A stretch of DNA of 64,000 nucleotides, taken from positions 76,070 to 140,069 of the forward strand of contig CAKOWU010000002.1 of the NCBI GenBank assembly GCA_934129885.1, written 5' to 3'. The DNA is from an uncultured Bacilli bacterium. Its GTDB lineage: Bacteria; Bacillota_I; Bacilli_A; RF39; UBA660. Both the position numbers and the translations under genes were made by a program. This document shows positions 7,048 to 60,588 of the stretch, one piece after another. The notes under the pieces were generated by a model. The model was given only the letters and a program-made list of their open reading frames with translations, was not told the origin of the DNA and ran no database searches. The stretch's first letter is position 1, and every line of letters starts with the position of its first letter.

Positions 7048-7063
7048 CTACTTAATAACTAAA

Positions 7064-7139: not shown

Positions 7140-7143
7140 AAAG

Positions 7144-7219: not shown

Positions 7220-7221
7220 AA

Positions 7222-7480: not shown

Positions 7481-7507
7481 ATCTATAAAATATTTATAAA
7501 CAAATTT

Positions 7508-14441: not shown

Positions 14442-14451
14442 CTCCTCATAA

Positions 14452-14660: not shown

Positions 14661-14671
14661 TATCAACTGTT

Positions 14672-15127
14672 TTAAAGTTCCACTTTTTCAATTTCATCAA
14701 TAACCTCAAGTTGTTGCTCTACAATGTTTTTAAGCCTTCTTTTAAATACTGTAACATTTCTTTGAAGTGTCATCGCATCATTTTCAATCTTTTCTGCTCT
14801 TTGTAACGCCTCATTAACTATTCTACTAGCGTTCTTTTTAGCGTCATCAAGCATAATCTCACTTTCCTTATGAGCCGCAACTTTAAGTTGATCGGAAGTC
14901 TTTTGTGCCATAATAATTGCTCTATTCAAAGTATCTTCCATTCTTTCATATTGGGCAAGTCTTTCCATGACCTCAGGATTGCCTTGATTTTTCTTAAGTC
15001 TTTCAATCTCTTTATCTTTAGCGTTTATCTCTGAAATCATCTCTTCAATACGTGTAATGATTTGATCTAAAAAGTTATTAACTTCTTCTGGATCATAGCC
15101 CCTTAGTACACGATTAAATCTTTCCAT
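14672..15127 (-). CDS. divIVA: DivIVA-domain cell-division protein
   Basis: N-terminal F-x-x-x-LRGYDxxEV motif, coiled coil, position upstream of ileS as in Bacillus. Confidence 0.85.
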   Translation of the reverse strand: MERFNRVLRGYDPEEVNNFLDQIITRIEEMISEINAKDKEIERLKKNQGNPEVMERLAQYERMEDTLNRAIIMAQKTSDQLKVAAHKESEIMLDDAKKNASRIVNEALQRAEKIENDAMTLQRNVTVFKRRLKNIVEQQLEVIDEIEKVEL

Positions 15128-15186
15128 AATATCGCATCCTCACACGTGCATCTTATTATAACACACTTTTCCTTTTATTTCTATAC

Positions 15187-15585
15187 TTACCACTCAATAT
15201 TTATATCATCATTATCATGGATGCCTTTACCATTTGTATCGCCAGTAATTTCGCCTTGAACACTGATATTGTCAGGAGTACACAAGAATATTCCGCCACC
15301 TATCTTTTGGATTTTTCCATTAATAGCGTATATAGTTCCACTTAAAAAGTCTACTATTCTCTTTGCTTGATCCGGAGTAACCCTTTTCAAATTAACAACA
15401 ACAGTATTTCTCTTCTTCAAATGATCGGCAATTTGTTGTGCTTCAGAATAAGCTCTTGGCTCTAATAGTATCATTTTAGCACTATCATCACTTAAAGCTG
15501 CTTCCTTTTCAGTTTCATAATATTTTTCAGTAGAACTGTAAGTTGGATCTTCGTCTCCATTAAATAATCCAGTTAATATACCCAT
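15187..15585 (-). CDS. sepF: Cell division protein SepF
   Basis: 132 aa with the conserved C-terminal domain ([16 protein letters not shown]...VVNL). Confidence 0.85.
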
Positions 15586-15703
15586 AATTATCCTCCTTCA
15601 TGTACTTTAAAAAATGTACAATCTGCTATAATTAATTCTAACATAACTTTTATAAAAATAAAATGTTTTTTTCATATATTTACAAAATAATTGTAAACTT
15701 GCG

Positions 15704-16387
15704 TTAATTATCGTCATCTTCTTCCTTTTGTCTCTTATATCCGACATAAAAAACACCAGGTTCCATAGTTAAACAAGTTATAACATGTTCAATATCAGAA
15801 ACTTCATCCGCTGATATCTCTGAAGATATTTTTATCTTATCTTTTTCTTCTGTTTTAGAAGTGCTGATAAGCCTAATATCTGTATCATCAATATTTTGAG
15901 CCACCAAAGTCCTTATTTCTTGTTCTCTCTCAGGTGAAATCACCACTGTAAGGACATACTTCTTTGTACTTTTTTTATCACTCATAGCAATTATCTTACG
16001 TGTAATATATCTAAGGACAATATTAGCGCATAAAATTAAAAACGTTCCCGTAGTTGCCTCTACTAAATAACCAGTCGCACATAACACCCCGATAGCGGCA
16101 TTACACCATAGTGTAGCGGCTGTATTAAGACCTCTTATATTAGCACCATCTTTAATAATTACTCCAGCACCTAGAAAACCAATACCACTAATAATTTGTG
16201 CTGCTACTTTTGTATCCCCGACTGCCCCAGACATCGTAGGCATAGAAGCAAATAAAAATGAGCCTAAGCACACAAGTACATTGGTACGGAGCCCAACTGC
16301 TCTCTTACGCCATTGTCTTTCAAGACCAACAACGAAACTTAAAAATAAAGCAATACTGATTCTAATTAAAAAATCTACATAATCCAT
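15704..16387 (-). CDS. MgtC/SapB family membrane protein
   Basis: 227 aa with GLERQ motif and 4-5 TM helices plus a C-terminal soluble domain. Confidence 0.8.
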   Translation of the reverse strand: MDYVDFLIRISIALFLSFVVGLERQWRKRAVGLRTNVLVCLGSFLFASMPTMSGAVGDTKVAAQIISGIGFLGAGVIIKDGANIRGLNTAATLWCNAAIGVLCATGYLVEATTGTFLILCANIVLRYITRKIIAMSDKKSTKKYVLTVVISPEREQEIRTLVAQNIDDTDIRLISTSKTEEKDKIKISSEISADEVSDIEHVITCLTMEPGVFYVGYKRQKEEDDDN

Positions 16388-16571
16388 ATATCGACCTCCT
16401 AAATAAGTGTTATAGAAATTACATTTTACTATATATATTATTAAGTGTCAAGGTAAAATATGTAGGAAAAAATATCTCAAAAATATTTTTGTTACTACGC
16501 AAATAAAAGAATAGAAAAATACAATAATATTTGCCTATAACTTTTCTATATTAATTGTTAGCCATTCCAGT

Positions 16572-16757
16572 TTACTGTAGCATTTTTACCAGCATACTAT
16601 TAAGTTTTGTATAATTAATACTCTCTTCTTCTTTTCTTCCATATATAAAGACAGCATAATCAATGGATAGACATAATAGCGCTGCTAACAAACAAAATAC
16701 TATTATTCTCTTTTGCTTTTTTGCATCTTTTCTACGTAAATGTTTCCTGCATTTCAT
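16572..16757 (-). CDS. Small membrane protein with the same upstream box and signal-anchor style as the large paralogs (possible truncated family member)
   Basis: 61 aa: basic N-terminus, one TM, IDYAVF motif. The conserved upstream box lies at 16801..16860. Confidence 0.4.
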   Translation of the reverse strand: MKCRKHLRRKDAKKQKRIIVFCLLAALLCLSIDYAVFIYGRKEEESINYTKLNSMLVKMLQ

Positions 16758-16800
16758 ATCATGTCCCTTTATCTTATGAAATATATTTTATTATTAGGTG

Positions 16801-16860
16801 AAACACCTAAATTATCCTATTGCTGTTATGGTAATAATATCAAAAAATAATGGTAACGCA
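16801..16860 (-). promoter_or_regulatory. Conserved upstream box, copy 3
   Basis: AAACACCTAAATTATCCTATTGCTGTTATGGTAATAATATCAAAAAA, about 42/50 identical to copy 1. Confidence 0.45.
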
Positions 16861-16891
16861 AGTACCGTATGTGCAGGTTACCTATTTTTGT

Positions 16892-16922
16892 TAATAAAAA
16901 GCATTAGATTTTTGTCTCTAAT
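16892..16922 (-). terminator. Terminator module shared with 18121..18149
   Basis: ATTAGA-N8-TCTAAT hairpin with a minus-strand T-run. About 30 nt nearly identical to the second copy. Confidence 0.5.
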
Positions 16923-16966
16923 ACTCTAGCGGCCCTTTCTGATAAATCAATTGTCTTATTAAAATA

Positions 16967-17890
16967 TTATTTTTCTATTTTCAATTCTTCAATTTCATTT
17001 TCTGATAAACCCGTGCACTTAATGATAATTTCTAACGGTAAATGCTCCTTTAGCATATTTTTGGCTACTTTCTTTGCGTTTTCTAATGCGCCAACTGTCT
17101 TGCCATGTTTTTCGCCATTAATGTATCCCTCTTCTTGTCCAACTTCTTTACCATTGGCAAAATAAGTATTTCGGGTTTTCTCCTCATCTTCCTCTTTTGA
17201 CATAAATTCTATGAAGTCAGAATCATTGTTAATCTCTTTTACACTCTTTACAAACTCTTTCATAATCTTATCTCCGTTCGCACTTAATCTCTCTAATTCC
17301 TCTTTACCTAATGCAAGCATCGCTACATGGAAGTACTTGCTGTTACCATTATTATACCATGCCTTAAGTATTTTAGACCCATTAAATTCGATTATCTTGA
17401 ATTTGGTCGAGTATTCAAGGCCGGTTTCTTTATCAGTAAGAACGTATACGGCTTTTTCAGGATAGTGCTCTGGCAGGCCATAAGTAAAGTTTATGAGTAT
17501 TGCTTCATCTACATTTTTATAATCACTTCCTGACTTTATAACATTAGAGAATAAAGCACAAAGATATGAAAGTCCTTTCTCATGCTGACCATCATAAAAA
17601 GATGAGTTCATTTCTAAAATGGCATGTCTACCGCCTTCCAAAGTAACCATAACATCTACTCTTTGTTTTTTTGTCCACACGCTTTTATAAGGTAATTCTA
17701 AAATATTGGAATTAAGCACAGTTACCTTTTCTTCCATAGACATATCTAAATAATACTTTAATAAGTTCCTTCTTCCTACAAACATAGCCTTAAATACCGA
17801 GTCCGCTAGTGGTTTATAGAATACTGTTCCATCTGGCAACACCTCCTTTGTTTGAATATTTTTTGTATCCATTTTTTTCACATTGTTCAT
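16967..17890 (-). CDS. Rpn-family recombination-promoting nuclease / putative transposase (PD-(D/E)XK)
   Basis: 307 aa with N-terminal DSVFKAMF motif and a C-terminal helical tail, typical of YhgA/Rpn-like proteins. Confidence 0.7.
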   Translation of the reverse strand: MNNVKKMDTKNIQTKEVLPDGTVFYKPLADSVFKAMFVGRRNLLKYYLDMSMEEKVTVLNSNILELPYKSVWTKKQRVDVMVTLEGGRHAILEMNSSFYDGQHEKGLSYLCALFSNVIKSGSDYKNVDEAILINFTYGLPEHYPEKAVYVLTDKETGLEYSTKFKIIEFNGSKILKAWYNNGNSKYFHVAMLALGKEELERLSANGDKIMKEFVKSVKEINNDSDFIEFMSKEEDEEKTRNTYFANGKEVGQEEGYINGEKHGKTVGALENAKKVAKNMLKEHLPLEIIIKCTGLSENEIEELKIEK

Positions 17891-18120
17891 AAACTTATCT
17901 TCCTCCTTTCAAAAAATGAATACAGTCCTTTTTTATTCTTGCACTACTCCATTAATAAATATTAGTCTCTTTTTTCTCTAAATCACCTCTCCCCCCCTCA
18001 CTAGTAATATACAACGTAAGTGGGGCAAATTACTTCTTCAACTTGCAAACTTTTTATATTTTTTCACTGTTTTTGCATTTTAACTCATATTTTAGATATT
18101 TTTACTTTTGGTGTAGATAA

Positions 18121-18149
18121 CAAAAAACATTAGATTTCTGTCTCTAATG
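18121..18149 (-). terminator. Terminator module (second copy)
   Basis: CATTAGA-N8-TCTAATG 7-bp stem with a minus-strand T-run. Confidence 0.55.
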
Positions 18150-18168
18150 TCTAGTTATTAAAATATTT

Positions 18169-19197
18169 TTAATTAGTACCAGTCCAGTTTAACGTCGCAT
18201 TCGTCGCACCCCATGGGGTGCCTTCTATAGCCCCTTCTTTTCTATTTACATTAATCATGGTTAAATTTTCATTATCTTTGAATGTACTTTGATGTATTGT
18301 TTTTACTGTAGACGGCAAATCTATGCTTGTGATTGTTTCTCCCGCTAAAGACATATTATTTAATGTTTCAACCCCTTCTTCTATTGTTACTTTTCTTGCC
18401 ATACTATAAGCAAAACAATAACTTGGAATTTCTTTTATTCTTCCCGGGATAGTTATTTCTTCATATTTTACATTTACATATGCCTCGGGCTGAATAACAG
18501 TTATCGTATCTGGTATTGATGTTCCAGTCGCATTCCTTCCTGCATAACTATTTAACACAGAATAATTTGTACTACCATCTGAATTAATACCATAAATAAA
18601 GGCTGCATCACCTTTTAGATTATTATTGCCAAAAGCACCACCTTCCATATATGTTACACTACTTGGAATATTTATCTCAGTGAGATTATTACCATTAAAA
18701 GCATCTAATCCTATATTTTTTAAACCTTCATTTAATTTTAAATATTTTATTTCATTATACTCAAATGCGTATTTACCAACTTCCTTTATATTAGTGGGCA
18801 AAGTTAAACTTTCTAATTTATTCGAATGAAACGCATAATTTCCTACCTCAACTAAAGTATCTGGTAATGTTAATTTGGTAATACCTTTATCCTGAAATGC
18901 TTTATCTCCTATTTTGGTAACAGTAAGTCCTTTTATAGTAGAAGGAATATTTACTTCTGTTCCACATGATTTATCATAATCAGTTATGGTTACTGTACCA
19001 TTTCCATTATCTGAGGTTCCATAACATTTATCAGATACTTTATATACATTGCCTTTGGCAGATAGGTTTATATTGGTGCTGAAGGCAGAGTAGCCTGTGA
19101 CAAGTACAAAAGTTAAACAAAGGAATATAGATGCGAATATTATTCTATGTTTTACAATATCTTTTTTTCTTAATCTTCTTTGGTATTTTCTTTGCAT
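18169..19197 (-). CDS. Leucine-rich-repeat (BspA-type) surface protein with GYSAFSTNINLS signal motif
   Basis: Repeats of the form I-P-x-x-V-x-x-I-G-x-x-A-F. Likely start is MQRKYQRR at 19197. Confidence 0.75.
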   Translation of the reverse strand: MQRKYQRRLRKKDIVKHRIIFASIFLCLTFVLVTGYSAFSTNINLSAKGNVYKVSDKCYGTSDNGNGTVTITDYDKSCGTEVNIPSTIKGLTVTKIGDKAFQDKGITKLTLPDTLVEVGNYAFHSNKLESLTLPTNIKEVGKYAFEYNEIKYLKLNEGLKNIGLDAFNGNNLTEINIPSSVTYMEGGAFGNNNLKGDAAFIYGINSDGSTNYSVLNSYAGRNATGTSIPDTITVIQPEAYVNVKYEEITIPGRIKEIPSYCFAYSMARKVTIEEGVETLNNMSLAGETITSIDLPSTVKTIHQSTFKDNENLTMINVNRKEGAIEGTPWGATNATLNWTGTN

Positions 19198-19549
19198 AAG
19201 ATATGGCACCCTTTCTACTAGGATTAACATATAACTCATAGTTATACGTTAATTATCTATATAAATCATACCACAAAATTGTCGGTTTGTATCATTATAT
19301 ATATCAAAGCACTCTTTTTTACCTTCATTTTTAATGTATAACTGTGAGTTATACATTAATGGTTGGACAATTTTATATTTCTTATGATATTCGTAAGAAG
19401 TTTAAGGGTTATATAGGTTTGTTTTTGATATGTTATGTGATTTTACTATATGGTTGTGTAGTTAACAAGAGAAAATTCTCTTCTGATTTTTACTATATCA
19501 CTTTTTTTATGGTTATGAATATAATACTATGAATATGAAAGGAGAGTTT

Positions 19550-20536
19550 ATGAAGAGGTTTATTGTGTTTTTGATTTTACTTGGTTTGATTATTGCTGGG
19601 TACTTTGTACTTTCGGGTAATCATGAGACTAAGGAGGTTAAAACTACTCATGTAAAGGTTGGAGAGGTTACTCATAGTGTGTTTTATGCACCACAATATG
19701 TAGCGGATGCACTTGGGTACTTTGAAGATGAGGGGCTTGATGTGGATATTGTTTTGACTGCTGGTGCTGACAAGGTTACGGCGGCAGTTCTATCAGGGGA
19801 TGTTCAGATTGGTTTTTGTGGTAGTGAGGCTACTATGTATTTATACAATCAAGGTGAGAAGGATTATTTAGTTAATTTTGCAGGTCTTACTAAGAAAGAT
19901 GGAAGTTTTATTGTTTCTAGAGAGAATATTAAGGATTTCAGTGTAGATGATTTATCTGGCAAGAAGATTTTAGGAGGCCGTGAGGGTGGTATGCCAGCGA
20001 TGACGCTTGAATATGCTTTGAAACAAAATGGCGTAGATGATGCGGATATTGATACTAGTGTTGATTTTTCTTCTATGTCTGGGGCGTTTATAGGTGGTAA
20101 TGGAGATTTTGTTACTTTATTTGAACCTACTGCGTCAGAAATTCAAAATGAGGGATATGGCTATATTGTGGCTTCTGTAGGTGAGCTTGGTGGTAGTGTG
20201 CCTTATACAGCTTATAACGCTAGGGGAAGTTATATAGATAATAATCCTGATGTAATTGAAGGGTTTACTAAGGCTATTCAAAAGGGCTTAGATTATGTTC
20301 ACAGTCATTCTGCGAAGGAAGTTGCGAGTACAATTAGTAAGCATTTCCCAGATAATTCTATTTCAGAACTTACTGATATTGTTCAAAAATATATGGATAT
20401 TGATGCTTGGTATGATACTACCTATATTACAAAAAATGATTTTAATCATATTATGGACATTGTTAGTAGTGCTGGTAAGTTAGATAAAAAAGTACCTTAT
20501 AAAAAGTTAGTTAATAATAGTTATAGTGAGAAATAA
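19550..20536 (+). CDS. ABC transporter substrate-binding protein (NMT1/THI5-like, NitT/TauT family)
   Basis: Signal anchor, GGAG RBS at MKRF, followed by the cognate ATPase and permease. Confidence 0.75.
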   Translation: MKRFIVFLILLGLIIAGYFVLSGNHETKEVKTTHVKVGEVTHSVFYAPQYVADALGYFEDEGLDVDIVLTAGADKVTAAVLSGDVQIGFCGSEATMYLYNQGEKDYLVNFAGLTKKDGSFIVSRENIKDFSVDDLSGKKILGGREGGMPAMTLEYALKQNGVDDADIDTSVDFSSMSGAFIGGNGDFVTLFEPTASEIQNEGYGYIVASVGELGGSVPYTAYNARGSYIDNNPDVIEGFTKAIQKGLDYVHSHSAKEVASTISKHFPDNSISELTDIVQKYMDIDAWYDTTYITKNDFNHIMDIVSSAGKLDKKVPYKKLVNNSYSEK

Positions 20537-21279
20537 TGGGTATTTTAAGTATTAAGAATTTAAGAAAAATTTATCACAATGAGTCTAAGGAAACTTTGGC
20601 TGTCGATAGTTTTTCTTTTGATTTAAATGAGGGCGAGTTTGTCGCTATTGTGGGGCCTTCGGGCTGTGGTAAGAGTACGATTTTATCTATTTTATGTGGG
20701 CTTGATGAGGCATCTTCTGGGAATATAGAACATGATAAGGATTTAAGGTTTGGCTATATGTTACAGGGGGATAATTTATTTGAATGGAATACGGTGTTTA
20801 AGAATTGTTTACTAGGCCTTGAGATAAATGGTAAGGTATCTAACGAGGATAAGGAATATGTTAAAAGGTTACTTAAGACGTACGGGCTTGGTGAGTTTAT
20901 GGATGCGTATCCTGGGGATTTATCTGGAGGGATGAGACAGCGAGTTTCGCTTATTAGGACGCTGGCGACGCATCCAGATATTCTTTTACTTGATGAACCT
21001 TTTTCGGCTTTAGATTATCAGTCGGCTTTGGCTGTGTCTGATGATGTATATGGTATTATTAAGAATGAGAAGAAAAGTGCGATTATGGTGACACATGATA
21101 TTAGTGCGGCGATTAGTATGGCAGACAGGATTATTGTTTTATCGGAAAGACCGAGCCATGTTAAGAAGGTTTATGAGATTAATTTGACTGATAAAAGTAC
21201 ACCTATTAATAACAGGAAGGCGAAGGAATTTAGCTATTATTATGATATGATTTGGAAGGATATTGATTTTCATGTGTAG
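20536..21279 (+). CDS. ABC transporter ATP-binding protein
   Basis: Walker A GPSGCGKST, signature LSGGMRQR, Walker B LLLDEP. Confidence 0.9.
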   Translation: MGILSIKNLRKIYHNESKETLAVDSFSFDLNEGEFVAIVGPSGCGKSTILSILCGLDEASSGNIEHDKDLRFGYMLQGDNLFEWNTVFKNCLLGLEINGKVSNEDKEYVKRLLKTYGLGEFMDAYPGDLSGGMRQRVSLIRTLATHPDILLLDEPFSALDYQSALAVSDDVYGIIKNEKKSAIMVTHDISAAISMADRIIVLSERPSHVKKVYEINLTDKSTPINNRKAKEFSYYYDMIWKDIDFHV

Positions 21280-42425: not shown

Positions 42426-43901
42426 TTAAATCACAATTGCGAATAAATTTCCAGAACCTTTATTAACAAGTTTAGATAAAGTCTGTTGTAACTTAAATCT
42501 AACAGCCTCTGGCATTAATGAAAGTTTTGCCTGTATACCCTCCTGAACGATAACATCTAGACTTCTACCAAAGATTTCACTTTTCCAAATATTGTTAGAA
42601 TCACTCTCTTTTCCTTTCATTAAATGGTCAATAAGTTCTTTACTTTGGATTTCGGAACCAATAATTGGTTCAAAAGTACTTTCTACATCTACTCTAATCA
42701 TATGAATAGATGGGGCGACTGCTTTTAATTTAATACCGTATCTACTACCTTGTTTTAAAATTTCTGGTGTATCAAGCGACATATCATTAAGAGTAGGACT
42801 TGCGACACCATAGCCAGTAGTTTTGACCATTTTTAAGGCATCTTTAATTTGATCATATTCACATTTTGCTTCGTTATATTCTTGGAACAATGATAGAAGT
42901 TGTGAACGATTGGTAATATCGACACCAATAATTTCTTTAAGAACTTCATTATATAAGTCATCTGGAGCTTTTAACGTAACATTAACTTCACCTGTTGAAG
43001 TATCAACGTTAGATAAGTAAGCCTGTCTAATATACTCGCATTCTTCTAATTTTTCAGTGATAACATCAATATCTCTAAGTTTATCAATTTCACATATACT
43101 ATCTCTGATTGTATCAATATATGCTTTCTTAAGCCAGTTATTAGGCGCTAGTGTAGCAATCCAGTCTGGCATATCGACATTAATCCTAACAACTGGGAAC
43201 TCATATAAGGCTTCTCTTAAAATGTTGTATGCGTCTCTTTCACTCATATTGTCAACATTCATTGGAATAACTGGCACATTATAACATTCTCTAAGCGAGG
43301 CCGCTAAATTTTCGGTCTCTGGTAACATTGGATGTGTACTATTTAATATAACAATATATGGCTTACCAATTTCACTAAGTTCGTCTGCGATTCTTTGTTC
43401 TGCAGGGGCATAACACTCTCTGTTAAACTCTCCGATAGAACCGTCAGAAGTTATTAAAACGCCAATACTAGAGTGGTCTTTAATAACTTTTTCAGTCCCT
43501 ATTTCAGCTGCTTCAACAAATGGAATTTCCTCCTCATACCATGGTGTGCGCACCATTCTAGGACCGTTTTCATCCTCATATCCTTTGGCTCCGTCAATTA
43601 CATATCCGACGCAGTCTACTAGGCGCACATTAGCACTAAAGTCATCAATATTGATTTTGGCGGCGTTACTAGGTACAAATTTAGGTTCTGTAGTCATGAT
43701 GGTCTTACCTTGTGCAGATTGAGGAATTTCATCAAGTGTCCTCTTTCTTTCGTATTCATCTAAGATATTAGGTACAACTAAATTTTCTAAAAATCTTTTG
43801 ATAAATGTACTTTTACCAGTTCTTACAGCTCCAACTACGCCAAGATAAATATCACCGCCAGTTCTTTCTGTAATACTTTTAATAATATCTATTTTTTCCA
43901 T
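42426..43901 (-). CDS. spoIVA: Stage IV sporulation protein A
   Basis: 491 aa. N-terminus ERTGGDIYLGVVGAVRTGKSTFIK is near-identical to Bacillus SpoIVA. Confidence 0.95.
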   Translation of the reverse strand: MEKIDIIKSITERTGGDIYLGVVGAVRTGKSTFIKRFLENLVVPNILDEYERKRTLDEIPQSAQGKTIMTTEPKFVPSNAAKINIDDFSANVRLVDCVGYVIDGAKGYEDENGPRMVRTPWYEEEIPFVEAAEIGTEKVIKDHSSIGVLITSDGSIGEFNRECYAPAEQRIADELSEIGKPYIVILNSTHPMLPETENLAASLRECYNVPVIPMNVDNMSERDAYNILREALYEFPVVRINVDMPDWIATLAPNNWLKKAYIDTIRDSICEIDKLRDIDVITEKLEECEYIRQAYLSNVDTSTGEVNVTLKAPDDLYNEVLKEIIGVDITNRSQLLSLFQEYNEAKCEYDQIKDALKMVKTTGYGVASPTLNDMSLDTPEILKQGSRYGIKLKAVAPSIHMIRVDVESTFEPIIGSEIQSKELIDHLMKGKESDSNNIWKSEIFGRSLDVIVQEGIQAKLSLMPEAVRFKLQQTLSKLVNKGSGNLFAIVI

Positions 43902-48154: not shown

Positions 48155-48231
48155 GGGGAATTAGCTCAGTTGGCTAGAGCACCTGCTTTGCACGCAGGGG
48201 GTCAAGGGTTCGAGTCCCTTATTCTCCACCA
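48155..48231 (+). tRNA. tRNA-Ala (UGC) with G3:U70 and encoded CCA
   Basis: Acceptor GGGGAAU/AUUCUCC, anticodon loop CUUUGCA. Promoter TTGCAT-17-TGcTATAAT lies just upstream (48114-48141). Confidence 0.9.
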
Positions 48232-48282
48232 ATATGTTTATTAAAACCTTGATAATTCAAGGTTTTTCTTTATTTATAAGGG
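48216..48282 (+). repeat. Direct repeat (attL-like): last 16 nt of tRNA-Ala plus its terminator
   Basis: 67/67 identical to 56038..56104. Confidence 0.9.
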
Positions 48283-48330
48283 CTTTTGTTTTACAATATC
48301 ACATTTATATCACATTTTCTAAATTTCATT

Positions 48331-48358
48331 AAAAAAATTGTAGAGAAAAAGTCTACAA
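48331..48358 (-). terminator. Terminator of the island operon
   Basis: TTGTAGA-N7-TCTACAA followed by T7 on the minus strand. Confidence 0.6.
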
Positions 48359-48360
48359 GT

Positions 48361-49578
48361 TTATCTTTTTATTCTTGGTATATCACTATTTTGGTATGGG
48401 AATTGTTCTAAATTTATTATATGCTCTGTTGGTTTTTCTATATATTCTACTATATTCGGTCGTTGAGAATAACTATCAAATTCTTTGCTTAAAGACATTA
48501 TATCTTCATCGGTAAATCCATAATTTGAAAAATCCGGTCTTTCTTGTAAACTAATAGTAGCTTCCATAAATGTTTTAATATTATCTATTCCTCTTTTTTT
48601 ATCTATACTTATTTGCTTATAAAATCCATACGCTATTAAACCAGATTCCACTTCTAATAGCTGTTTCATTGTTTGAAAGCTAATATGTTCTTTAACATTT
48701 TCCACAGATAAATCATTATACGCAGAAATACCTTTACTGCGCACCAAATCCAATTTTATTTGTAATAAGGTCATATTAGCAAGTGATTTTAAATAATCAT
48801 TTTTTTTCATTCTTAATTTTTGTACTTCTTTCTTATCAAAACCTTGTTTTTCTAGATAATCTATAAATAAGTAATCAATGGTATATGTAGGAACTTCATG
48901 AAAACCGTAATATGTTTCACTAGGAAGTTTCTTTTTAGAATAAAAATCTACACTATGCATTATCTCGTGATTTAAAATTTGGTAATCAAATATTGTATTT
49001 TCTCTGGCTACTGAACAATAAGCTTCATCAAATACATGATCATAGATAGTTAAGCCACCATAATTTTCAAATTCACCCAATTGTCCTTCTCTAATATGTA
49101 ATAGTTCAGGGTTATCCAAAGTTTTTAAAGCTCTTTCTTTAATATCATTATCATCTAATTCAGTATAAAATTTTTTAGACATATCTATTAACTCTTTATC
49201 AGAAATTTCCATTTTAGTAAATGTAATTTCTCCAGTATTGCCATCAGCGATATTTTGAGCTAAATCTAATAAAAATTGTAAATAGGCACCGTCTACGTAA
49301 TCGCCTTTATTTTGTACTAATTCATATTCTAATTTTGCGTATTTTTCTTCTTTTGTAAGTTTTAGTTTGCCATTTGTTACTTTTTGTAAAACGTTTTTTA
49401 AATTAGAAGCAAATTTTGATACTCCTGTTTGTAATAGACAAACATATCCAATTAGGCTCATTTCCAATTCTTCTTTTTCTTTATCAGTTAAATTAACACA
49501 TTTTAACCTATCTAAAACATATTTTTTCTTTTTTCTAATAGAACTTAAATTCCAATTATAATTACTCATATAAATCAA
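48361..49578 (-). CDS. HExxH gluzincin-type metallopeptidase-like protein
   Basis: NHEIMHSVDF with Glu 20 residues after the second His (GFHEVPT), matching thermolysin-like spacing. Otherwise helical. Confidence 0.5.
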   Translation of the reverse strand: MIYMSNYNWNLSSIRKKKKYVLDRLKCVNLTDKEKEELEMSLIGYVCLLQTGVSKFASNLKNVLQKVTNGKLKLTKEEKYAKLEYELVQNKGDYVDGAYLQFLLDLAQNIADGNTGEITFTKMEISDKELIDMSKKFYTELDDNDIKERALKTLDNPELLHIREGQLGEFENYGGLTIYDHVFDEAYCSVARENTIFDYQILNHEIMHSVDFYSKKKLPSETYYGFHEVPTYTIDYLFIDYLEKQGFDKKEVQKLRMKKNDYLKSLANMTLLQIKLDLVRSKGISAYNDLSVENVKEHISFQTMKQLLEVESGLIAYGFYKQISIDKKRGIDNIKTFMEATISLQERPDFSNYGFTDEDIMSLSKEFDSYSQRPNIVEYIEKPTEHIINLEQFPYQNSDIPRIKR

Positions 49579-49636
49579 ATCCTTTAATCAAACTCATTTT
49601 GTAAAATTCTTGATATGATATATTATTTAAAGCAAT

Positions 49637-50040
49637 TTACCTTGTGTTTGCTCTATTATTTATTATATTGTTAGAAATTAAATATTTCGAGTAATCTTGC
49701 TCGTATATAGAAATATAATCCGATAACATACTCTCATAAAAATTTTCAATAAAAGTTACACATTTATTAGATAAATTATTATAATTATTAATAACATATT
49801 TTATCACATTATCTGAAGTAGGAGTTCCTGTTTTTAAAATACTTGCTAACTCTGTTAATTTGTCATTAAGTATTGTATCTTCATTGACATTGTTTGTTTT
49901 TTAATCTTTAATATTAATCCATCATTTTCTAAAAAACTTAATACATTTTTATTTAAATTTTGCCTAGTCATATCATCTATATATGAATTATTAAGACAAT
50001 TTTTAATCTGTTCTTTCAAATTATCATTATCAGTTTTAAA
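49637..50040 (-). pseudogene. Frameshifted small helical-protein gene
   Basis: Two adjacent frames (..LENDGLILKIKKQ and NEDTILNDKLTELASIL...NNRANTR*) join at an A-run near 49893-49900. No ORF of 60 aa or more appears in the track. Confidence 0.4.
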
Positions 50041-50051
50041 ATACTTATTTA

Positions 50052-50453
50052 TTAAAGAATTAAAAACATAATACCAATTTTGGTATAAGAGCCTCCTAAT
50101 CCGAAATAATCTAAAGAAAGATATGGTTTATATTCTAATATAAAGTCTAGTAACGTTTTTTGATTTTCGTCATCAATAATTAAATCTAAATCAAATTCAT
50201 TAATTTCTAGTTTATTTATGCGATTACTAAAAAATTTAATAACATTTGGTGTGTTATTAATTAATTTCTTGTCATTAAAACAATTATGATAATTTTCAAA
50301 TATATTTTTATTTTCTTCTATAATTTTTAAATAATCTTGAACTAATTTTTTTAATTTTGGTCCTAATTCTTCTTGTCTTTTTTTTAACACATCATTATAC
50401 CCATTATTAATTACATTTGCTATTTGGATTTTGTAATCTTTTATCATAAGCAC
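50052..50453 (-). CDS. Hypothetical protein
   Basis: 133-aa ORF in the island operon. Confidence 0.5.
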   Translation of the reverse strand: MLMIKDYKIQIANVINNGYNDVLKKRQEELGPKLKKLVQDYLKIIEENKNIFENYHNCFNDKKLINNTPNVIKFFSNRINKLEINEFDLDLIIDDENQKTLLDFILEYKPYLSLDYFGLGGSYTKIGIMFLIL

Positions 50454-50469
50454 CTCTTAATACATGAAA

Positions 50470-51195
50470 TTATCTAACATTACCTTTTTGTCTTTCAACT
50501 AAATAATTACCATTTTGATATGCAGGTAATAATTCCGCTGTCCCGTCATTATGTCTTAAATATACTTTTGGAAAGGTATAAAACCCCTCATAAGTAGGAT
50601 TATTTTCATACATAATAAAATTAAAATCGTTACTTGGAGGCATTAACATAGCCATAGTTTCTACTTGTTTATTTTTAAATAGTGGATGAAGATTATTAAA
50701 TTGTACATATGAAATTAAATCGCCAAAAGAAAAATTATCACTTACAGGAGAAATTCCATGTGTATGTCCATGACATATAACTTGCTTATTACCATTATCA
50801 TATTCTCCCTGTTCAATGCCTCTTACATATTCATTTAAAGATGAATTAATTCCATCAAAGGAAGCAGAAGTTCTACCACTAGGTTGATATGTTGAAATAA
50901 CTGTATCTAGCCACACCGTTCCGTTTGGCTTTTCTTCACCAAACATTAAATAGGCAATTTCTTCATTTGTTTGACTTGTAATGTTTCTTATTTTAAGTAG
51001 TTCTTGATATGCTTCTTCGGTTATAACTATATTATTACTAGCATTTACATTTCCCATTTTTACTGGAGAAATAGGTGTGTTTTCTGAATCTCCATAATTA
51101 TATGTTTCAAAAAGACTAGCGTAAAAATCGGCATTTGGGTTATTGTCACCCAATAATATATCAATTGTTTTATTTCTCGCTTCTTCTCTATTCAT
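50470..51195 (-). CDS. JAB/MPN (JAMM)-like metalloprotease
   Basis: Upstream Glu (EIAYLMFGEE), then HGHTHG-x-SPVSDNFSFGD, which fits H-x-H-x(7-9)-S-x-x-D. Confidence 0.55.
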   Translation of the reverse strand: MNREEARNKTIDILLGDNNPNADFYASLFETYNYGDSENTPISPVKMGNVNASNNIVITEEAYQELLKIRNITSQTNEEIAYLMFGEEKPNGTVWLDTVISTYQPSGRTSASFDGINSSLNEYVRGIEQGEYDNGNKQVICHGHTHGISPVSDNFSFGDLISYVQFNNLHPLFKNKQVETMAMLMPPSNDFNFIMYENNPTYEGFYTFPKVYLRHNDGTAELLPAYQNGNYLVERQKGNVR

Positions 51196-51317
51196 TTATC
51201 TAATACCTCTCTTAATTTCACTTTCTGATATTCTGTATCACCCTTATAATAAATTATATAATCATTTCTCATTAAATTCAATATCAAATATATTATAATT
51301 ATTATTACATAGTATAA

Positions 51318-52364
51318 CTATATTGTTTTTATTCTTCTATTAATTAGACTTAAAGCAACTTGTAAAGTTTCTTCACTCTGACACTCAATATCAGGTTTTG
51401 TGTTAAAATATCCTTCATATTGTATTTTTCCTTCTGGATTTATTGGAGCTTCAGTAGGAAACCATAGTCCCATATTTCTACCTATAATTTTCCACTCATG
51501 TTTATATTTATCACTTTGTTTTCCATTATAAACACCACTGGTTAATTGTATATTAAAAGGAGTAAATCCTCCTCCTTCACCTAGAGTTGATTCACCAATT
51601 ATGGTAGCATAACCTGTTTGCTTACAAAATTTAGCCAATGTTTCAGAAGTTGAAAACACTTCATTATTAATAAGTAAGTATTTATTATAATGTTTTACAT
51701 TATTGCCTTGAGGAATAGGATTCCACGTAAAATCAAGTTCTTTTTTCAAGAATAAGTCATATAATCTATCATGAAAATCTAAATTTTCATCAGTAAAACA
51801 ACTAAAATGTTTAAAATATGCATCACTTCCGCCTCCATTAGATCTTATATCAATAATGATATTATTAATTTCATTATTATCTAAGTAATTTTTTAAATTT
51901 TTAAATATATATTCATCTTCTTCAATAAAAGTATTATTAAATGATTTTATTTTAATAATAGCGCTGTCATTTATAAAGCTAATTTCCGCATTATTATTTT
52001 TAAATTCTTCACGCGCATCTTCACTTTTCTGTTTTTTTTCTTCCAAATCATTTTCCAAGTCGTCATATTCCATAGGGCCTATTGCCACATGGTCATTGGA
52101 TATTTTTTCAATTAAGTTATCGTTTATAAAATCGATAAAATCATCATCTGAAAAAACGGTTTGTCTAACTTTTAATTTTAATTCTTTTAAATAGTTATCA
52201 TTTAAAAAATTATTACCTTTCCAGTCCAAATAATATTTTTGACTTGTTTCTATAAGTTTATAAATAAACTCTAGTTTAGATACATAATTATCCAATCTTT
52301 TATATTGTTCTTGTATTTCAAGTTCTTTTTTTTCTCGCTCTTTCATTATTTGTTCAATATTCAT
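51318..52364 (-). CDS. S41 (C-terminal processing peptidase)-like protein with an N-terminal coiled coil
   Basis: IIIDIRSNGGGS and LLINNEVFSTSETLAKF...IIGESTLGEGG align to the S41 DLRxNxGG and SASASE...TFGKG motifs. Confidence 0.6.
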   Translation of the reverse strand: MNIEQIMKEREKKELEIQEQYKRLDNYVSKLEFIYKLIETSQKYYLDWKGNNFLNDNYLKELKLKVRQTVFSDDDFIDFINDNLIEKISNDHVAIGPMEYDDLENDLEEKKQKSEDAREEFKNNNAEISFINDSAIIKIKSFNNTFIEEDEYIFKNLKNYLDNNEINNIIIDIRSNGGGSDAYFKHFSCFTDENLDFHDRLYDLFLKKELDFTWNPIPQGNNVKHYNKYLLINNEVFSTSETLAKFCKQTGYATIIGESTLGEGGGFTPFNIQLTSGVYNGKQSDKYKHEWKIIGRNMGLWFPTEAPINPEGKIQYEGYFNTKPDIECQSEETLQVALSLINRRIKTI

Positions 52365-52387
52365 ATTAATATTCTCCTATGTCCATA

Positions 52388-53392
52388 TTACATACTACCA
52401 ATTTTCCTGCCTTCACTTACTTGAATATTTTGTGTTAATAAATGTTCCGGCACTGCTCCTGTTTTTTCATATTGCTTTAATTCTTCTAAACTCATTTTCT
52501 GTAATAATTGATCTCGTCTTGCTGCTTCTTCATTTATATTGTTGTTCTGCCAGCTTTGACCATCTACTGAATTTTGATGACTTAATATAGTTTGTGCTTG
52601 ATTAACTAATTCTTGCGTTTGAGGTGATAACTGTGGTTGCTGTGGTACTTCTACATATTCAATTATAATATCATCTTCAGCCTTTTGTCTAGTTTGTTCC
52701 ACTACATTTTGAATAACTTCTTGACTTTGTTTTTCTAGTTGTATTATCGTCCCATAAAAAGATTTTGCCGACATAATTGTAGAATTTCTATTTTGATTTA
52801 TTAATGTTGATACATTACTTTTTAACATTTGCTCAGCATTTTCTTTTTCTACTAATATTATCCGTTTTAACTCTTCAACTGCTTGCGAATTACTATATAC
52901 ACCATTTGTAGTTATAACACTTCTAAATAAATCAGTAAATTGGGCGGATAGATCTATTCTATTTGCATATAATTCCTGTAAAGTTTGTAGTTTACTATCA
53001 CTTTTATTTATGCCTTTTTCAATCATATTATTTTTCTCTTCAGTAGTTTTATCTTCTGCTTGACTTTTACTTGTTATTGTTCTAATCATAGCTTCATTTA
53101 TTTTATCAAAATTTTGATAATTTTCTGCCACAAAACTTTGATGTGTTTTTCGCATTTCACTAATAGCAATATTATCTACATAGTACTCAATATCATTTCT
53201 ACTACTCGAAAAACCATAATGATCTAAAACCGCAGTCATAGAATTAATTAATCTTTGTCGAATGATGCTTAAATCACCACTATTTTTTTCCAAACTTTGA
53301 TTACTAAATTTCCTTAAATTTTCTGTCATTTTACTTTTTAAAGTAATTTCCATATCTTTAAACTGCTCAATAGGTATTGCCATATCTACCAT
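52388..53392 (-). CDS. Coiled-coil, Gln-rich hypothetical protein
   Basis: 334-aa ORF, helical and low-complexity. Confidence 0.5.
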   Translation of the reverse strand: MVDMAIPIEQFKDMEITLKSKMTENLRKFSNQSLEKNSGDLSIIRQRLINSMTAVLDHYGFSSSRNDIEYYVDNIAISEMRKTHQSFVAENYQNFDKINEAMIRTITSKSQAEDKTTEEKNNMIEKGINKSDSKLQTLQELYANRIDLSAQFTDLFRSVITTNGVYSNSQAVEELKRIILVEKENAEQMLKSNVSTLINQNRNSTIMSAKSFYGTIIQLEKQSQEVIQNVVEQTRQKAEDDIIIEYVEVPQQPQLSPQTQELVNQAQTILSHQNSVDGQSWQNNNINEEAARRDQLLQKMSLEELKQYEKTGAVPEHLLTQNIQVSEGRKIGSM

Positions 53393-53442
53393 TTCTCCAT
53401 TTCTATTATATAAAATAACAATTTTTTAGCAAATTTTTACCT

Positions 53443-53757
53443 CTATGCTAGCAAATTAATATATAAAGCCATAAAACCACTTAACAATAAACAAAATGCT
53501 AAAAGAATTGTAGTGATAGTTGTTTTAGTATTATTAACTTTCTTTGCAAGTGGATGTTTATCAAGAGTTTTTTGCCAACCTTTTTCTTGTGTATTTGATT
53601 TTTCTAAGGTTTTAGAATTTTGTAATGTACTTATAGATTGTCCATTTTCTAAAGCTTCTAATTGTTCAAAATTCATATTTAATAAATCCTCATAAGAATA
53701 CTTATTACCATAGTTATCTTGAAAGAAAGTTTTTTTACTTGTTTGAAAATCATTCAT
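53443..53757 (-). CDS. Tail-anchored small membrane protein
   Basis: 104 aa with a single C-terminal TM helix. The start overlaps the upstream gene. Confidence 0.5.
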   Translation of the reverse strand: MNDFQTSKKTFFQDNYGNKYSYEDLLNMNFEQLEALENGQSISTLQNSKTLEKSNTQEKGWQKTLDKHPLAKKVNNTKTTITTILLAFCLLLSGFMALYINLLA

Positions 53758-54577
53758 AATAAACCTCCAAAATTTTTATCTTAATTGCTTTTTGTATTAT
53801 CTGATCGTTTAATTCTTCAATTTTATCATCCAATAATTTAAGCAAATCATTAGATGGAGTAGTATTAATTTCTTCTCTTGAAGCCACATTGTTAATACTA
53901 TTTAAAGTAACTCCAGCCATTATTTTATCTATTTCACTAGTATTAGGATTATTTATAATATCTTGAACTTTTTGAGTTTTATCTTCTCTTTTTTCTTTAG
54001 TCATATTTGGAGTTCCATCTAATCTTGAATATTCTACTTCTGCAGTTATTTTATCTAATTCACTACTTTTTGAACTTTTTTGTATATTATTCCAGTATTT
54101 TTCTTTTTCTTCTTCAGTTTTATGGATTGAATATTGATTTTTTTCTTGATTGTTTGTTAAGTATACTTTCCCTAATATACTTAATTTTAATGGTGTTAAT
54201 TCATGCATACAAGTTAACGCTTTTAAAAGATCCATGTGAATATCTTTTAACAATATCATTTCATTATTTAACATTGCTATTATGTCCTCAGTTAATTTAG
54301 AACTAAACTTGTTTACTAGTTTACTATCAATATAATAAATGTTATCATTGATTGTTCTAGCCTGAAACTGTAGCCATTCTCTAAGATTTTGTTTTTGCTT
54401 TTCCACTTCCAGCCATTGATTAGGCTCAGCTTTATAAAAACTTATTAATTTGTTTTTATACTGTTTGATTACTTTATTTCTTAGTTTTATTAATTTTTTA
54501 TAATCTAAATTTTTAATATCTGACATTGTTTCTTCATTTAGAAGTTTTTTGCTTTTTCTTTCACTTAATATTTTCAT
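53750..54577 (-). CDS. Hypothetical helical protein with an internal duplicated SE(L/I)DKI(T/M)A motif
   Basis: 275-aa ORF. Confidence 0.5.
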   Translation of the reverse strand: MKILSERKSKKLLNEETMSDIKNLDYKKLIKLRNKVIKQYKNKLISFYKAEPNQWLEVEKQKQNLREWLQFQARTINDNIYYIDSKLVNKFSSKLTEDIIAMLNNEMILLKDIHMDLLKALTCMHELTPLKLSILGKVYLTNNQEKNQYSIHKTEEEKEKYWNNIQKSSKSSELDKITAEVEYSRLDGTPNMTKEKREDKTQKVQDIINNPNTSEIDKIMAGVTLNSINNVASREEINTTPSNDLLKLLDDKIEELNDQIIQKAIKIKILEVYYE

Positions 54578-54677
54578 ATCTTACCTCCGATTTTATTCCA
54601 AAAAATATAATCAACAGCAAAGAGACTTGCTACTGACTATATTATTATATTTTTATTTAATCTCTTTACCTATTAAT

Positions 54678-55382
54678 TTATTCTCCAAAAATATCTTTTA
54701 ATGGATTATAATTATCGTCTAAAGATTTGATGATATGTGAATATTCTTCTTTAATTATGCGAGGTACTGAATTAAGAGTTAAAGCAATGGCTTCAAAATC
54801 AAATAAGAATTTATCATCTACCTCATCATGTTTAGCATAAATTGGAGCATATACATTATTTACTACATCATTCTCATCAAATTTTAACCCACCATATTCA
54901 GCAACAAACTTTCTGTTCAATTCTACTTCTTTTTTAGATCTTTCAATTTTTTTGCTAATTTTTTCGGTATATTCTTTAACAGTATCACTATATTGATTAT
55001 CAAATTCGGACTCTAACGGCTTGATTTTTTCTTCAACATCCGCTTTCATAAATTCATTCTTTTTAACACCAACAGAAATAGCTACGGCAAAATCCGAATT
55101 TTTTGTATTACATTCGTCATATAATCTTTTATAATCGTATCTTTTTTGCTCTAATATTTTTTGTATTCTTTCAACTTCAGATAAATATGTGTCAAGCCCT
55201 TTTTGAAAACTTTCAGGTGAAAGCATTTTTTTGATATTTTTTCTAAAACTATATTCAGCCTCATATACTTCATCAGCAAGTTGTAAATATTGTTCAGTTT
55301 CTTTAGAATACCTTTCCATAATATCTTTTACATCAGAATTATGTTTCTCAATTAATTCATTCACTATTATCTCCTCCTTCAA
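54678..55382 (-). CDS. Hypothetical helical protein (first gene of the island operon)
   Basis: 234-aa ORF divergent from the XRE gene. Confidence 0.5.
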   Translation of the reverse strand: MKEEIIVNELIEKHNSDVKDIMERYSKETEQYLQLADEVYEAEYSFRKNIKKMLSPESFQKGLDTYLSEVERIQKILEQKRYDYKRLYDECNTKNSDFAVAISVGVKKNEFMKADVEEKIKPLESEFDNQYSDTVKEYTEKISKKIERSKKEVELNRKFVAEYGGLKFDENDVVNNVYAPIYAKHDEVDDKFLFDFEAIALTLNSVPRIIKEEYSHIIKSLDDNYNPLKDIFGE

Positions 55383-55563
55383 AATAAAATGAATATAATA
55401 AAATTTTAAGAAAAATATACCTTTTTCTACATAAATCTACTTATATTGTAACATAAATATTTTTATTTTTTGCATAAAATATATAATTTTACGCATATTT
55501 ACATAAGCAATATCACTATAATTGATTTTCAATAAATGTAAAATTGTATATAGGAGAAGATTT

Positions 55564-55899
55564 ATGAAAAATAATTTAAAAGAAATTAGAAACAGTAAAA
55601 ACTTATTGCAAACTAAAGTTGCAATGGATTTAAATATAACTCAAGAAACAATAAGCTCTTATGAAACGGGACGCGTTTTTCCTAGCTCAGATATGCTTAT
55701 AAAATTAGCCAATTATTATAATACTTCCATTGATTATTTACTGTGTCGCACTAAATATAATATGCCAATCAATACTATTAAACCAAATAATATATCTGAT
55801 GATGATTTTATTTTATTAAATAAAATAAATAAATTATCTTCACAAAATAGAGTAAAAGTTGAAGCCTATATTGAAGGATTAAATGATAGCTCCAACTAA
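55564..55899 (+). CDS. XRE-family helix-turn-helix regulator
   Basis: LLQTKVAMDLNITQETISSYETGRVFPS HTH region. TAGGAGAAG RBS before the ATG at 55564. Confidence 0.8.
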   Translation: MKNNLKEIRNSKNLLQTKVAMDLNITQETISSYETGRVFPSSDMLIKLANYYNTSIDYLLCRTKYNMPINTIKPNNISDDDFILLNKINKLSSQNRVKVEAYIEGLNDSSN

Positions 55900-56037
55900 T
55901 TCATATCACTTTTATATCAATTTTTATATAATTTTTGATATTTTGATTTAATTATTATTAATTTAAAATATATGAAAATGGTTGATACATATAGCGTTTT
56001 TTATCATTTAAAACATTAATAAAACAATTAAATAAAA

Positions 56038-56104
56038 CCCTTATTCTCCACCAATATGTTTATTAAAACCTTGATAATTCAAGGTTTTTCTTTATTTATA
56101 AGGG
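56038..56104 (+). repeat. Direct repeat (attR-like)
   Basis: 67/67 identical to 48216..48282. Confidence 0.9.
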
Positions 56105-56484
56105 TTTTGTCATATTTTGTTTTTTTGTGGGCTACACCAAAATATATTACTTTCCTATCTATCATTTTATTATTAAAAGTAATTTATCACTCATCATATT
56201 ATCGCCATATATAATAAATTCATTTTCACCACCGTGCATAGACATACCAACTACCACCCCAATAATCAGCAGCAACAATTGACAAATGAAGTTACCTTTA
56301 TAATTTATAAGAACATTAAATGATTTTTTCAATGTGTAGCCCAAACATTTAAGATATCTTGGTAAAAATAAAATTTAAAATGTTGATGTTTATCAAAAAA
56401 AGTAATAACACAACTTATAGATAAGTATGAGAAATCAAAATCATTGCTATAATATCACTTATTAATTTAAAGGAGGAGATTAAT

Positions 56485-60147: not shown

Positions 60148-60588
60148 ATGTGTAACAATAACACGAATGAATGCCGATGCATATCAGAAATCCTAACAGT
60201 TATCAATATCTTGCAAGATAATGCACAATGTGCGGATACTTGTTTAGATACTTGCGATAGAGGGTTTTTAGGCTGCTCAGTATCAACAGTAGGCTGCAAC
60301 ACTAGACCTATAATGCTATATATAGGTGCTGGTAATGGTACACCATGGCAAATGCCTACTACTAAAACAAATGCTGTCTGTGGTAATGATGGGGCAACAT
60401 GTTCAAATGTATTTAGAGTAGAAAAAGTAGATGGTTGTTGTGCTACGTTTAGAGTTCTTGGAGAAAATCCTGATTCAGAAGAAGCTGAAACAATACCATA
60501 TGTCGCAACAAATACATTTTTTACAATGAATTTAAATTGTGTATGCTGCTGCAGATGTTTACAAGATACATATGTAGAAGGCGTTTAA
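60148..60588 (+). CDS. CotY/CotZ-family cysteine-rich spore coat/exosporium protein
   Basis: VFRVEKVDGCCATFRVL resembles Bacillus CotZ FFRVERVHGSCATLSLL. About 19 Cys, including CVCCCRC. Confidence 0.75.
   Translation: MCNNNTNECRCISEILTVINILQDNAQCADTCLDTCDRGFLGCSVSTVGCNTRPIMLYIGAGNGTPWQMPTTKTNAVCGNDGATCSNVFRVEKVDGCCATFRVLGENPDSEEAETIPYVATNTFFTMNLNCVCCCRCLQDTYVEGV

Follow-up and report, generated by a model that had tools for sequence, protein, structure and literature searches.

How does an island come to lie between two copies of a tRNA 3' end when none of its own genes appears able to have placed it there? The question is raised by a locus of an uncultured Bacilli bacterium (contig CAKOWU010000002.1), of which a stretch of 64,000 nucleotides, hereafter called the window, was analysed. 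Within it, a tRNA-Ala gene is followed by a 7.8-kb island at 48283-56037 and then by a displaced copy of its own 3' end. Our results indicate that this island is probably a non-autonomous element of the type known as CIME (cis-mobilizable element), which sits in the 3' end of the tRNA-Ala gene, would be mobilized in trans, and carries as cargo a trimmed gene module. The mechanism of an integrase-less island is already known; the rare, protease-rich module is the unexplored part.

The interior of the island consists of eight minus-strand open reading frames (ORFs) of 104 to 405 amino acids (aa), designated p234, p275, p104, p334, p348, p241, p133 and p405, together with two small doubtful ORFs and one divergent gene for an XRE-type regulator. 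We propose that site-specific recombination, most probably by a tyrosine integrase, put the element into the tRNA-Ala 3' end, and that this insertion duplicated a 67-nucleotide (nt) attachment (att) sequence, yielding attL, which completes the tRNA, and attR. The recombinase would no longer be encoded, so that excision and re-integration would need an integrase from another element that recognizes the same att. The cargo would be an XRE-controlled operon, a trimmed copy of a rare gut-Bacilli module whose core comprises a JAB/MPN+ metalloprotease, a short PepF-like zinc oligopeptidase, p234, p334 and a small protein with a C-terminal membrane anchor; to this core the island copy would have added an S41-fold protein, and from it an ATP-binding cassette (ABC) exporter would have been deleted. 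The module may process a peptide or protein substrate inside the cell, with complete versions presumably exporting the product.

If so, the tRNA-Ala gene of an uncultured, spore-forming Firmicute of the human gut is a reused integration site that holds a non-autonomous cassette, and elements of this kind would be missed by automated island finders keyed on integrases. The analysis also picks out a rare but recurrent gene set of gut Bacilli (p234, p334, the JAB protease and the PepF-like peptidase), which occurs with or without an ABC exporter, an extracytoplasmic function (ECF) sigma factor and the S41-fold protein, and which is a candidate peptide-processing and export system.

The integration site and the search for a recombinase

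The tRNA-Ala gene (anticodon UGC), located by ARAGORN at 48155-48231 on the plus strand and matched by the Rfam tRNA model at 70 bits, is the integration target; the promoter-like TTGCAT/TATAAT pair upstream of it reads as the tRNA gene's own. A repeat search found 48216-48286 to recur directly at 56038-56108, over 71 nt with one mismatch and with the first 67 nt identical, and the pair starting at 48216 and 56038 is the only outstanding direct repeat between 46 and 58 kb. The identical 67 nt comprise the last 16 nt of the tRNA gene and 51 nt downstream of it, including a terminator hairpin (AAAACCTTGATAATTCAAGGTTTT). The copy at 48216-48282 (plus strand), which completes the tRNA gene and carries the hairpin, is attL; the displaced copy of tRNA 3' end and terminator at 56038-56104 (plus strand) is attR. 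With up to three mismatches allowed, the 67-mer occurs twice in the window and not at all in 100 dinucleotide-preserving shuffles, and the only two terminator-like sites in the region 48.0-56.6 kb are the hairpins of the two repeats. Past the repeat, attL continues with C and TTTTGT and attR with TTTTGT, a 1-nt indel. A first-pass annotation, made from the letters of the window, had described exact 67-bp repeats of just this make-up, indel included, and is confirmed in each respect. From the two junctions, the empty site (attB) is predicted to read ...GGTTCGAGT + 67-mer + TTTTGTCATATTTTG, and the attP junction ...AATTAAATAAAA + 67-mer + CTTTTGTTTTACAATATCAC.

Inside both ends of the island, and on the plus strand in both cases, lies a tandem pair of the form ATATCA[CA][AT]TTT (48296-48317 and 55903-55924). 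The left pair consists of two copies of ATATCACATTT and begins 14 nt inside attL; the right one, an ATATCAC/ATATCAA pair accompanied by an inverted TTGATAT (together 55903-55941), lies 114 nt inside attR. The 11-mer ATATCAMWTTT occurs seven times in the window against an expectation of 1.56, and four of the seven occurrences make up the two end pairs. A 14-mer near attR, TAATTTTTGATATT, is common to the island and to an unrelated insert described below, at an equal distance from att. Proteins may bind to these tandem motifs at either end of the element, with the motif near attL possibly serving as a terminal or arm-type site; that the motifs represent a new type of terminal site for a borrowed tRNA-Ala integrase is conceivable but improbable.

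The arrangement is shared by other strains. The window has an identical counterpart in a 114-kb contig (L001) that comes from a gut metagenome of the Hadza, and exact-sequence look-ups of the S41-fold protein and of both flanking proteins yielded about 25 human-gut contigs of the same species. In the 12 related contigs that hold the island, the tRNA body always precedes attL and attR always precedes the same right flank; every att copy in the related contigs is of attL or attR type. Across the roughly 25 contigs, occupancy of the site alternates between the island and another insert. In L014, L016 and L017, right flank and attR match those of the window (99.2% identity) but the interior is unrelated to the island; there, the att copy is an attR and not an empty site, because AT-rich DNA rather than the tRNA body precedes it. 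This alternative insert spans at least 5.4 kb and contains IS66-family remnants, a helix-turn-helix (HTH)-TPR regulator (RNPP-like, 287 aa), two small ORFs and an IS110-family transposase; it was seen at 11906-14411 of L014 and again in L038. The alternative insert and the island begin at the same boundary by attR. For two unrelated inserts to finish at one and the same base beside the 67-mer is the outcome to be expected of repeated site-specific integration.

Sequence divergence tells a similar story. Compared with the window, strains L002, L003 and L005 show differences of 0.9-1.5% in the flanks and of 0.26-0.37% in the island, which makes the island 4-5 times less diverged than its flanks (Fisher p = 2e-14 for L003 and 6e-10 for L002); the ancestor of the island is therefore more recent than that of its surroundings. 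Low divergence and reuse of the site argue for movement of the island, and both strengthen the original proposal of site-specific integration into a tRNA 3' end. The accompanying suggestion that perfect repeats signify recent insertion fared less well: attR carries one substitution in L002, L003, L005 and L017, so that recency holds for the lineage of the window at most.

The absence of a recombinase was reported in the first-pass annotation and was borne out by profile searches. When ten ORFs of the island were scanned against each of four libraries of hidden Markov models (HMMs), namely Pfam, PADLOC, PHROGs and NCBIfam, no integrase, resolvase, transposase, excisionase, relaxase, replication or phage structural family was found at E<=0.1, a result limited by the sensitivity of HMMs for the five orphan ORFs. 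In PHROGs, the XRE regulator gave the only significant matches, and no phage structural, packaging, replication or integrase gene was detected. Three proteins from related loci (a Xer-type tyrosine recombinase, a large serine recombinase and an IS110 transposase) served as tblastn probes of the entire window and produced chance-level matches only. Nor is a recombinase remnant likely to be hidden in intergenic DNA, because the gaps are too small save for 49579-50051, and this gap is where the last part of an ABC-exporter gene, otherwise lost, is preserved. The ends of the island, where the 3' end of p405 comes next to attL and the XRE gene precedes attR, gave no Phage_integrase match, and neither Pfam nor tblastn revealed an insertion sequence (IS) or transposase within or beside the island in the window. 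The term 'integrase-less' thus holds within the sensitivity of profile searches. A phage or plasmid origin was also considered and rejected: a megablast search with the island matched only the tRNA in 50,697 phage genomes and nothing in 72,556 plasmids. Relatives of p405 and p348, as well as a 31-mer of att, were not found in IMG/VR, and the 31-mer was likewise not found in JGI metagenomes.

These features invite comparison with the CIMEs of Firmicutes, which occur, for example, with the ICESt1/ICESt3 family of ICEs (integrative and conjugative elements) in streptococci (PMC5704250). Like a CIME, the island keeps attL and attR as direct repeats at the 3' end of its target gene and lacks integration and transfer genes, in that no integrase, excisionase, relaxase or type IV secretion genes were detected between the flanking sites; movement would be expected only with a recombinase from a cognate element that integrates at one att site (accretion). 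It differs from the described CIMEs in that neither a cognate ICE or integrative and mobilizable element (IME) nor a remnant of one was identified and mobilization was not observed, in that the host is an uncultured gut spore-former, and in that the target is a tRNA-Ala gene with a long, 67-nt identity segment. With tRNA-targeting islands, ICEs and prophages the island shares a repeat that includes the tRNA 3' end, an XRE-type regulator at one end that diverges from a long operon, and a G+C content below that of the core flank (about 25% against about 30% in the left flank), but int, xis, an ImmA-type protease, conjugation genes and phage genes were all lacking. In ICEBs1, a tyrosine-integrase element at tRNA-Leu, immR-immA-int stand at one end, whereas here only 138 nt, the place expected for int, separate the stop codon of the XRE gene from attR. 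The integrase gene beside one att that marks tyrosine-integrase islands was thus absent from the island, which also showed none of the structural, packaging, replication or integrase genes of a prophage or a phage satellite (such as the phage-inducible chromosomal islands).

Cargo proteins and their relatives in other gut Bacilli

The cargo is not wholly uncharacterized, as had first been supposed, since three of its proteins (p241, p405 and p348) have peptidase folds. A search of these three against PDB sequences was uninformative and a fold search was therefore needed. The gene p405 (48361-49578, minus strand) encodes a short PepF-like gluzincin metallopeptidase of M3B fold, with an HEIMH motif and a downstream Glu. 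Its AlphaFold2 model has a predicted local distance difference test (pLDDT) score of 84, the top Foldseek match is oligoendopeptidase F (3sks, E 8e-7), followed by Pz peptidase A, and H204, E205, H208 and E228 are invariant in 25 homologues. As in oligoendopeptidase F and Pz peptidase (MEROPS M3B), HExxH and the downstream Glu lie in the M3B helical fold; the likeness, however, has a template-modelling (TM) score of about 0.48 over the aligned part only, p405 is some 160-200 residues shorter (405 against 545-600 aa, about 30%), and it gives no M3 match in Pfam or NCBIfam.

The protein p241 (50470-51195, minus strand) is a zinc metalloprotease of the JAB/MPN+ (JAMM) class that has a helical extension at its N-terminus. 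Its model (pLDDT 91.6) matches BubCD, CSN5 and Rpn11 in Foldseek at E values of about 3e-6 to 1e-4, and it shares its fold with Rpn11, CSN5 and the JAB-like domain of Citrobacter BubCD at a probability of 1.0 and TM scores of about 0.4-0.47. Across 26 homologues, the JAMM ligands E88, H144, S156 and D159 are invariant and H146 is nearly so, and p241 has both the MPN fold and the E...HxH...S..D zinc site of the JAB/MPN+ class. It differs from known JAB isopeptidases in the helical extension, which is its own, in an identity of only about 15% to the fold matches, and in an operon in which no ubiquitin-like protein (Ubl), E1 or E2 partner was detected.

The third such protein, p348 (51318-52364, minus strand), combines a coiled-coil N-terminus with an S41 fold (Pfam Peptidase_S41, E 3.9e-16). 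In the alignment with CtpB, SASASE and GKG of that enzyme correspond to STSE and GEG of p348, so that the catalytic Ser motif of the S41 processing peptidases (CtpA, CtpB and Tsp) is kept and the catalytic Lys is replaced by Glu. In contrast to these enzymes, p348 has no PDZ domain and no signal peptide, a Kyte-Doolittle scan showed no hydrophobic segment, and the catalytic dyad is incomplete. These departures recall IRBP (retinol-binding protein 3), a non-catalytic protein of S41 fold and the best match of p348 among PDB sequences. Judged by its residues, p348 may be an inactive or atypical S41 member.

The remaining minus-strand genes are less readily placed. The first gene of the operon, p234 (54678-55382), belongs to a very small family: a search of 1.84 billion cluster representatives gave only seven members at E<=1e-3, none of them an informative fusion. 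It is followed by p275 (53750-54577), a basic helical protein (isoelectric point 8.6) with an internal repeat, by p104 (53443-53757), a small protein with a single C-terminal transmembrane segment, and by p334 (52388-53392), a helical, Q-rich protein. By hydropathy, all cargo proteins except p104 look cytoplasmic. A further small protein, p133 (50052-50453), is encoded between p241 and p405; the idea that it might be a Ubl precursor, raised by a GLGG motif with a 12-residue tail beside the JAB gene, was dropped, because no similar small GG protein accompanies the JAB homologues elsewhere and because p133 is not called in some strains.

Facing the operon across a divergent region with promoter-like sites (55383-55563), which would serve as promoter and operator and holds another ATATCAC, is the XRE/Cro-CI-type repressor-like gene (55564-55899, plus strand; 111 aa as called, with an ORF from 55522). 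Its product matches Pfam HTH_3 (E 7.7e-14), PHROG 8 (E 1.4e-22) and, under the family cut-off, an RstR-like model of NCBIfam (E 8.5e-17), and is similar to repressors of phages and mobile elements.

Together, p234, p334, JAB and p405 recur at two other loci of gut Bacilli (L033 and L042), where an ABC exporter and a sigma factor of ECF type accompany them in both cases. At L033, the order is ECF-type sigma, a 261-aa and a 264-aa protein, p234-like (38%), ABC exporter, p241-like (82%), p405-like (44%) and a 163-aa protein. At L042, it is XRE, sigma, a 254-aa and a 264-aa protein, p234-like (37%), a 98-aa protein, a divergent JAB in which GHTHG is kept, NUDIX, a 587-aa protein, a 110-aa protein, ABC exporter and p405-like (44%). 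The 587-aa protein contains the N-terminal domain of p334 (about 170 aa) twice (28% identity, E 3e-17), and the 110-aa protein (14188-14520) has the architecture of p104, with a like C-terminal membrane anchor. The L042 module is clearly chromosomal, lying beside RNase J, FtsY and YlxM, and neither a tRNA nor flanking repeats were found there.

The closest relative of p405 outside the species (L043) is 89% identical in aa and 90.6% in nt over 1345 nt; it stands directly after an ABC exporter and is followed by an AbiEii gene, and its homology to the p405 region of the island ends exactly at the left tandem motif pair. The 1345-nt blastn match also covers a stretch of about 55 nt at 49583-49637 (minus strand) upstream of p405, and the same bases of L043 (2577-2632) end a 584-aa ABC_membrane/ABC_tran gene; the translated remnant, SYQEFYKMSL, is similar to AYQELYKSEL. 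Since the end of the ABC gene is still recognizable upstream of p405 in the window, the island copy has lost its exporter. The 470-nt gap around the remnant (49579-50051), which includes the small ORFs p54 and p56, is probably non-coding, the scar of a deletion.

Decay is not confined to the exporter, for p348 occurs split and p405 frameshifted in some strains, and no gene is called for p133 in L002, L003 and L005. On this point the first-pass annotation needs correction, since the operon is in decay.

Relatives of single proteins occur in further settings. Homologues of p241 lie after ftsQ, beside a Xer-type gene, or within a large-serine-recombinase element, and homologues of p405 (about 43% identity) lie after nusB-xseA-xseB in many gut Bacilli. 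In JGI metagenomes (L020-L023, at about 1-9.8 kb), a distant p241 homologue (41% identity) is part of an integrated element that also encodes a large serine recombinase of 524 aa and an excisionase-like HTH_17 protein. The homologue has a 267-aa HExxH protein as its partner, and the pairing of JAB and zinc peptidase thus recurs on another type of mobile element.

What the cargo does can be stated only tentatively. We are inclined, with low confidence, to regard it as a cytoplasmic module for peptide or protein processing whose complete form includes export, because it combines two apparently active zinc peptidases with an S41-fold partner that possibly does no more than bind substrate, and because an ABC exporter and a sigma factor accompany the set elsewhere.

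Weighing the explanations

Several observations weigh against a mobilizable cassette. No empty attB site and no attP circle junction was found in the roughly 25 contigs of the species, and mobility is therefore inferred rather than observed. In the nearest GTDB relative, at 87% nt identity, tRNA-Ala is missing beside the Tam41 gene, but a scaffold gap lies there, so that this single locus returned from GTDB by way of the Tam41 neighbour was uninformative. No integrase-bearing element with the same att turned up in IMG/VR, in JGI metagenomes or in the alternative insert, where the approximately 5.4 kb reached through the HTH-TPR protein held IS66 and IS110 sequences only and the far end was not recovered; nor was a conjugation, relaxase or phage remnant found that would tie the island to an ICE, IME or prophage ancestor. 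With no empty site, with single-base differences between attL and attR in some strains and with decaying genes, the island may be on its way to becoming a fossil. An outright fossil, an old and immobile integration passed on by vertical descent, is the most serious of the alternatives though still unlikely. It would account for the fact that nearly every contig of the species has the island at one and the same position, for the one-base departure of attR from attL in some strains, for the decay and for the missing cognate integrase, and the low divergence of the island could come from homologous recombination through the flanks, or a local sweep, instead of site-specific transfer. It sits poorly with repeats that are still perfect in the window lineage, with an island so much less diverged than both flanks, and with a different insert at the same att boundary, by which the site has been used more than once.

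Two further accounts dispense with a borrowed integrase, and both are highly improbable. A recombinase of an unrecognized family among p234, p275, p334, p133 and p104, none of which has a detectable family or an assignable fold, would make the element autonomous; formally this is conceivable, p275 is basic and tandem motifs occupy both island ends, but p234 and p334 recur in the chromosomal L042 module without tRNA or repeats, the candidates are helical, coiled-coil-like and acidic with no recombinase motif in any, and p133 is disrupted in some strains. A local duplication by replication slippage, IS activity or illegitimate recombination, with no site-specific integration at all, gains something from the IS66 and IS110 remnants that adjoin attR in some strains and from a right flank that is likewise low in G+C and accessory-looking; yet the repeat begins within the tRNA 3' end and spans the terminator, as integrase att sites do, two unrelated inserts share its boundary, and the window is free of IS and transposase genes in and beside the island.

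A mobilizable cassette remains the reading we prefer for the island as a whole, and the alternatives for its cargo are a separate matter. An anti-phage defence or conflict system, the guess originally offered, is improbable, and nothing positive emerged to bear it out. It draws on an integrated element under an XRE regulator, on the JAB proteases known from CBASS and Bil/Bub-type systems (BubCD being the top fold match of p241) and on the AbiEii gene beside the closest p405 relative. However, PADLOC-DB v2 contained no credible match for the operon proteins, the best being a weak one of a LeoA coiled-coil to p234 (E 5.8e-4) and those of the XRE protein being generic HTH matches only, and no defence component was recognized among the cargo. 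Neither Pfam nor NCBIfam detected an E1, E2, Ubl, cyclase or nuclease among the island ORFs, homologues of p241 and p405 occupy the housekeeping neighbourhoods behind ftsQ and nusB-xseAB, and the homologous gene sets with sigma factor and ABC exporter, one of them chromosomal, fit production and export better than immunity. More speculatively, and with somewhat better though still poor prospects, the operon could be an undescribed proteolysis-based system that makes a peptide signal or toxin, or acts in conflicts between elements, and travels between strains on a borrowed-integrase cassette; its parts may be a JAB isopeptidase, a PepF-like peptidase, an S41-fold pseudo-enzyme that binds substrate, and helical or membrane-anchored partners.

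Host, flanks and other features of the window

The flanks of the island contain housekeeping and sporulation genes only (as far as positions 38 kb and 64 kb of the window, and for about 4 kb further in L013), among them those for SpoIVA, SpoVIF, Der, EngB, a Tam41-like protein, PBP1, a CotZ-like coat protein and similar proteins. These genes identify the host as a spore-forming Firmicute; its G+C content is about 30%. The cysteine-rich ORF for the CotZ-like spore-coat protein (60148-60588, plus strand) lies in the low-G+C right flank, with membrane proteins and a small HTH_26 regulator as its neighbours, and the entire stretch of 56-60 kb looks accessory.

At L032 (1-1160), from the nearest GTDB relative (the Clostridia bacterium metagenome-assembled genome CAVHAY010000008.1), synteny with the window stops just before the tRNA-Ala promoter; a Fic-domain gene stands in place of the tRNA-Ala locus, but a run of N, the scaffold gap, lies between.

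The window copy of spoIVA (42426-43901) is intact. In some strains (L007 at 14153-20870, L011 and L012), the gene is shortened, to 428 as against 491 aa, and is followed by genes for an XRE regulator, a Macro domain protein, an ADP-ribosylglycohydrolase and a serine recombinase, all foreign. The arrangement looks like a skin-like intervening element inserted in a sporulation gene.

At the other end of the window (3775-7486, minus strand), two tRNA-Asn genes (7144-7219 and 7064-7139) have a T-box leader (7251-7486, Rfam 140 bits) directly upstream, and gatA-like (5229-6710) and gatB-like (3775-5229) genes come after them; the T-box appears to control an operon of tRNA genes and a tRNA-dependent amidotransferase. 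A second T-box is found at 14470-14675.

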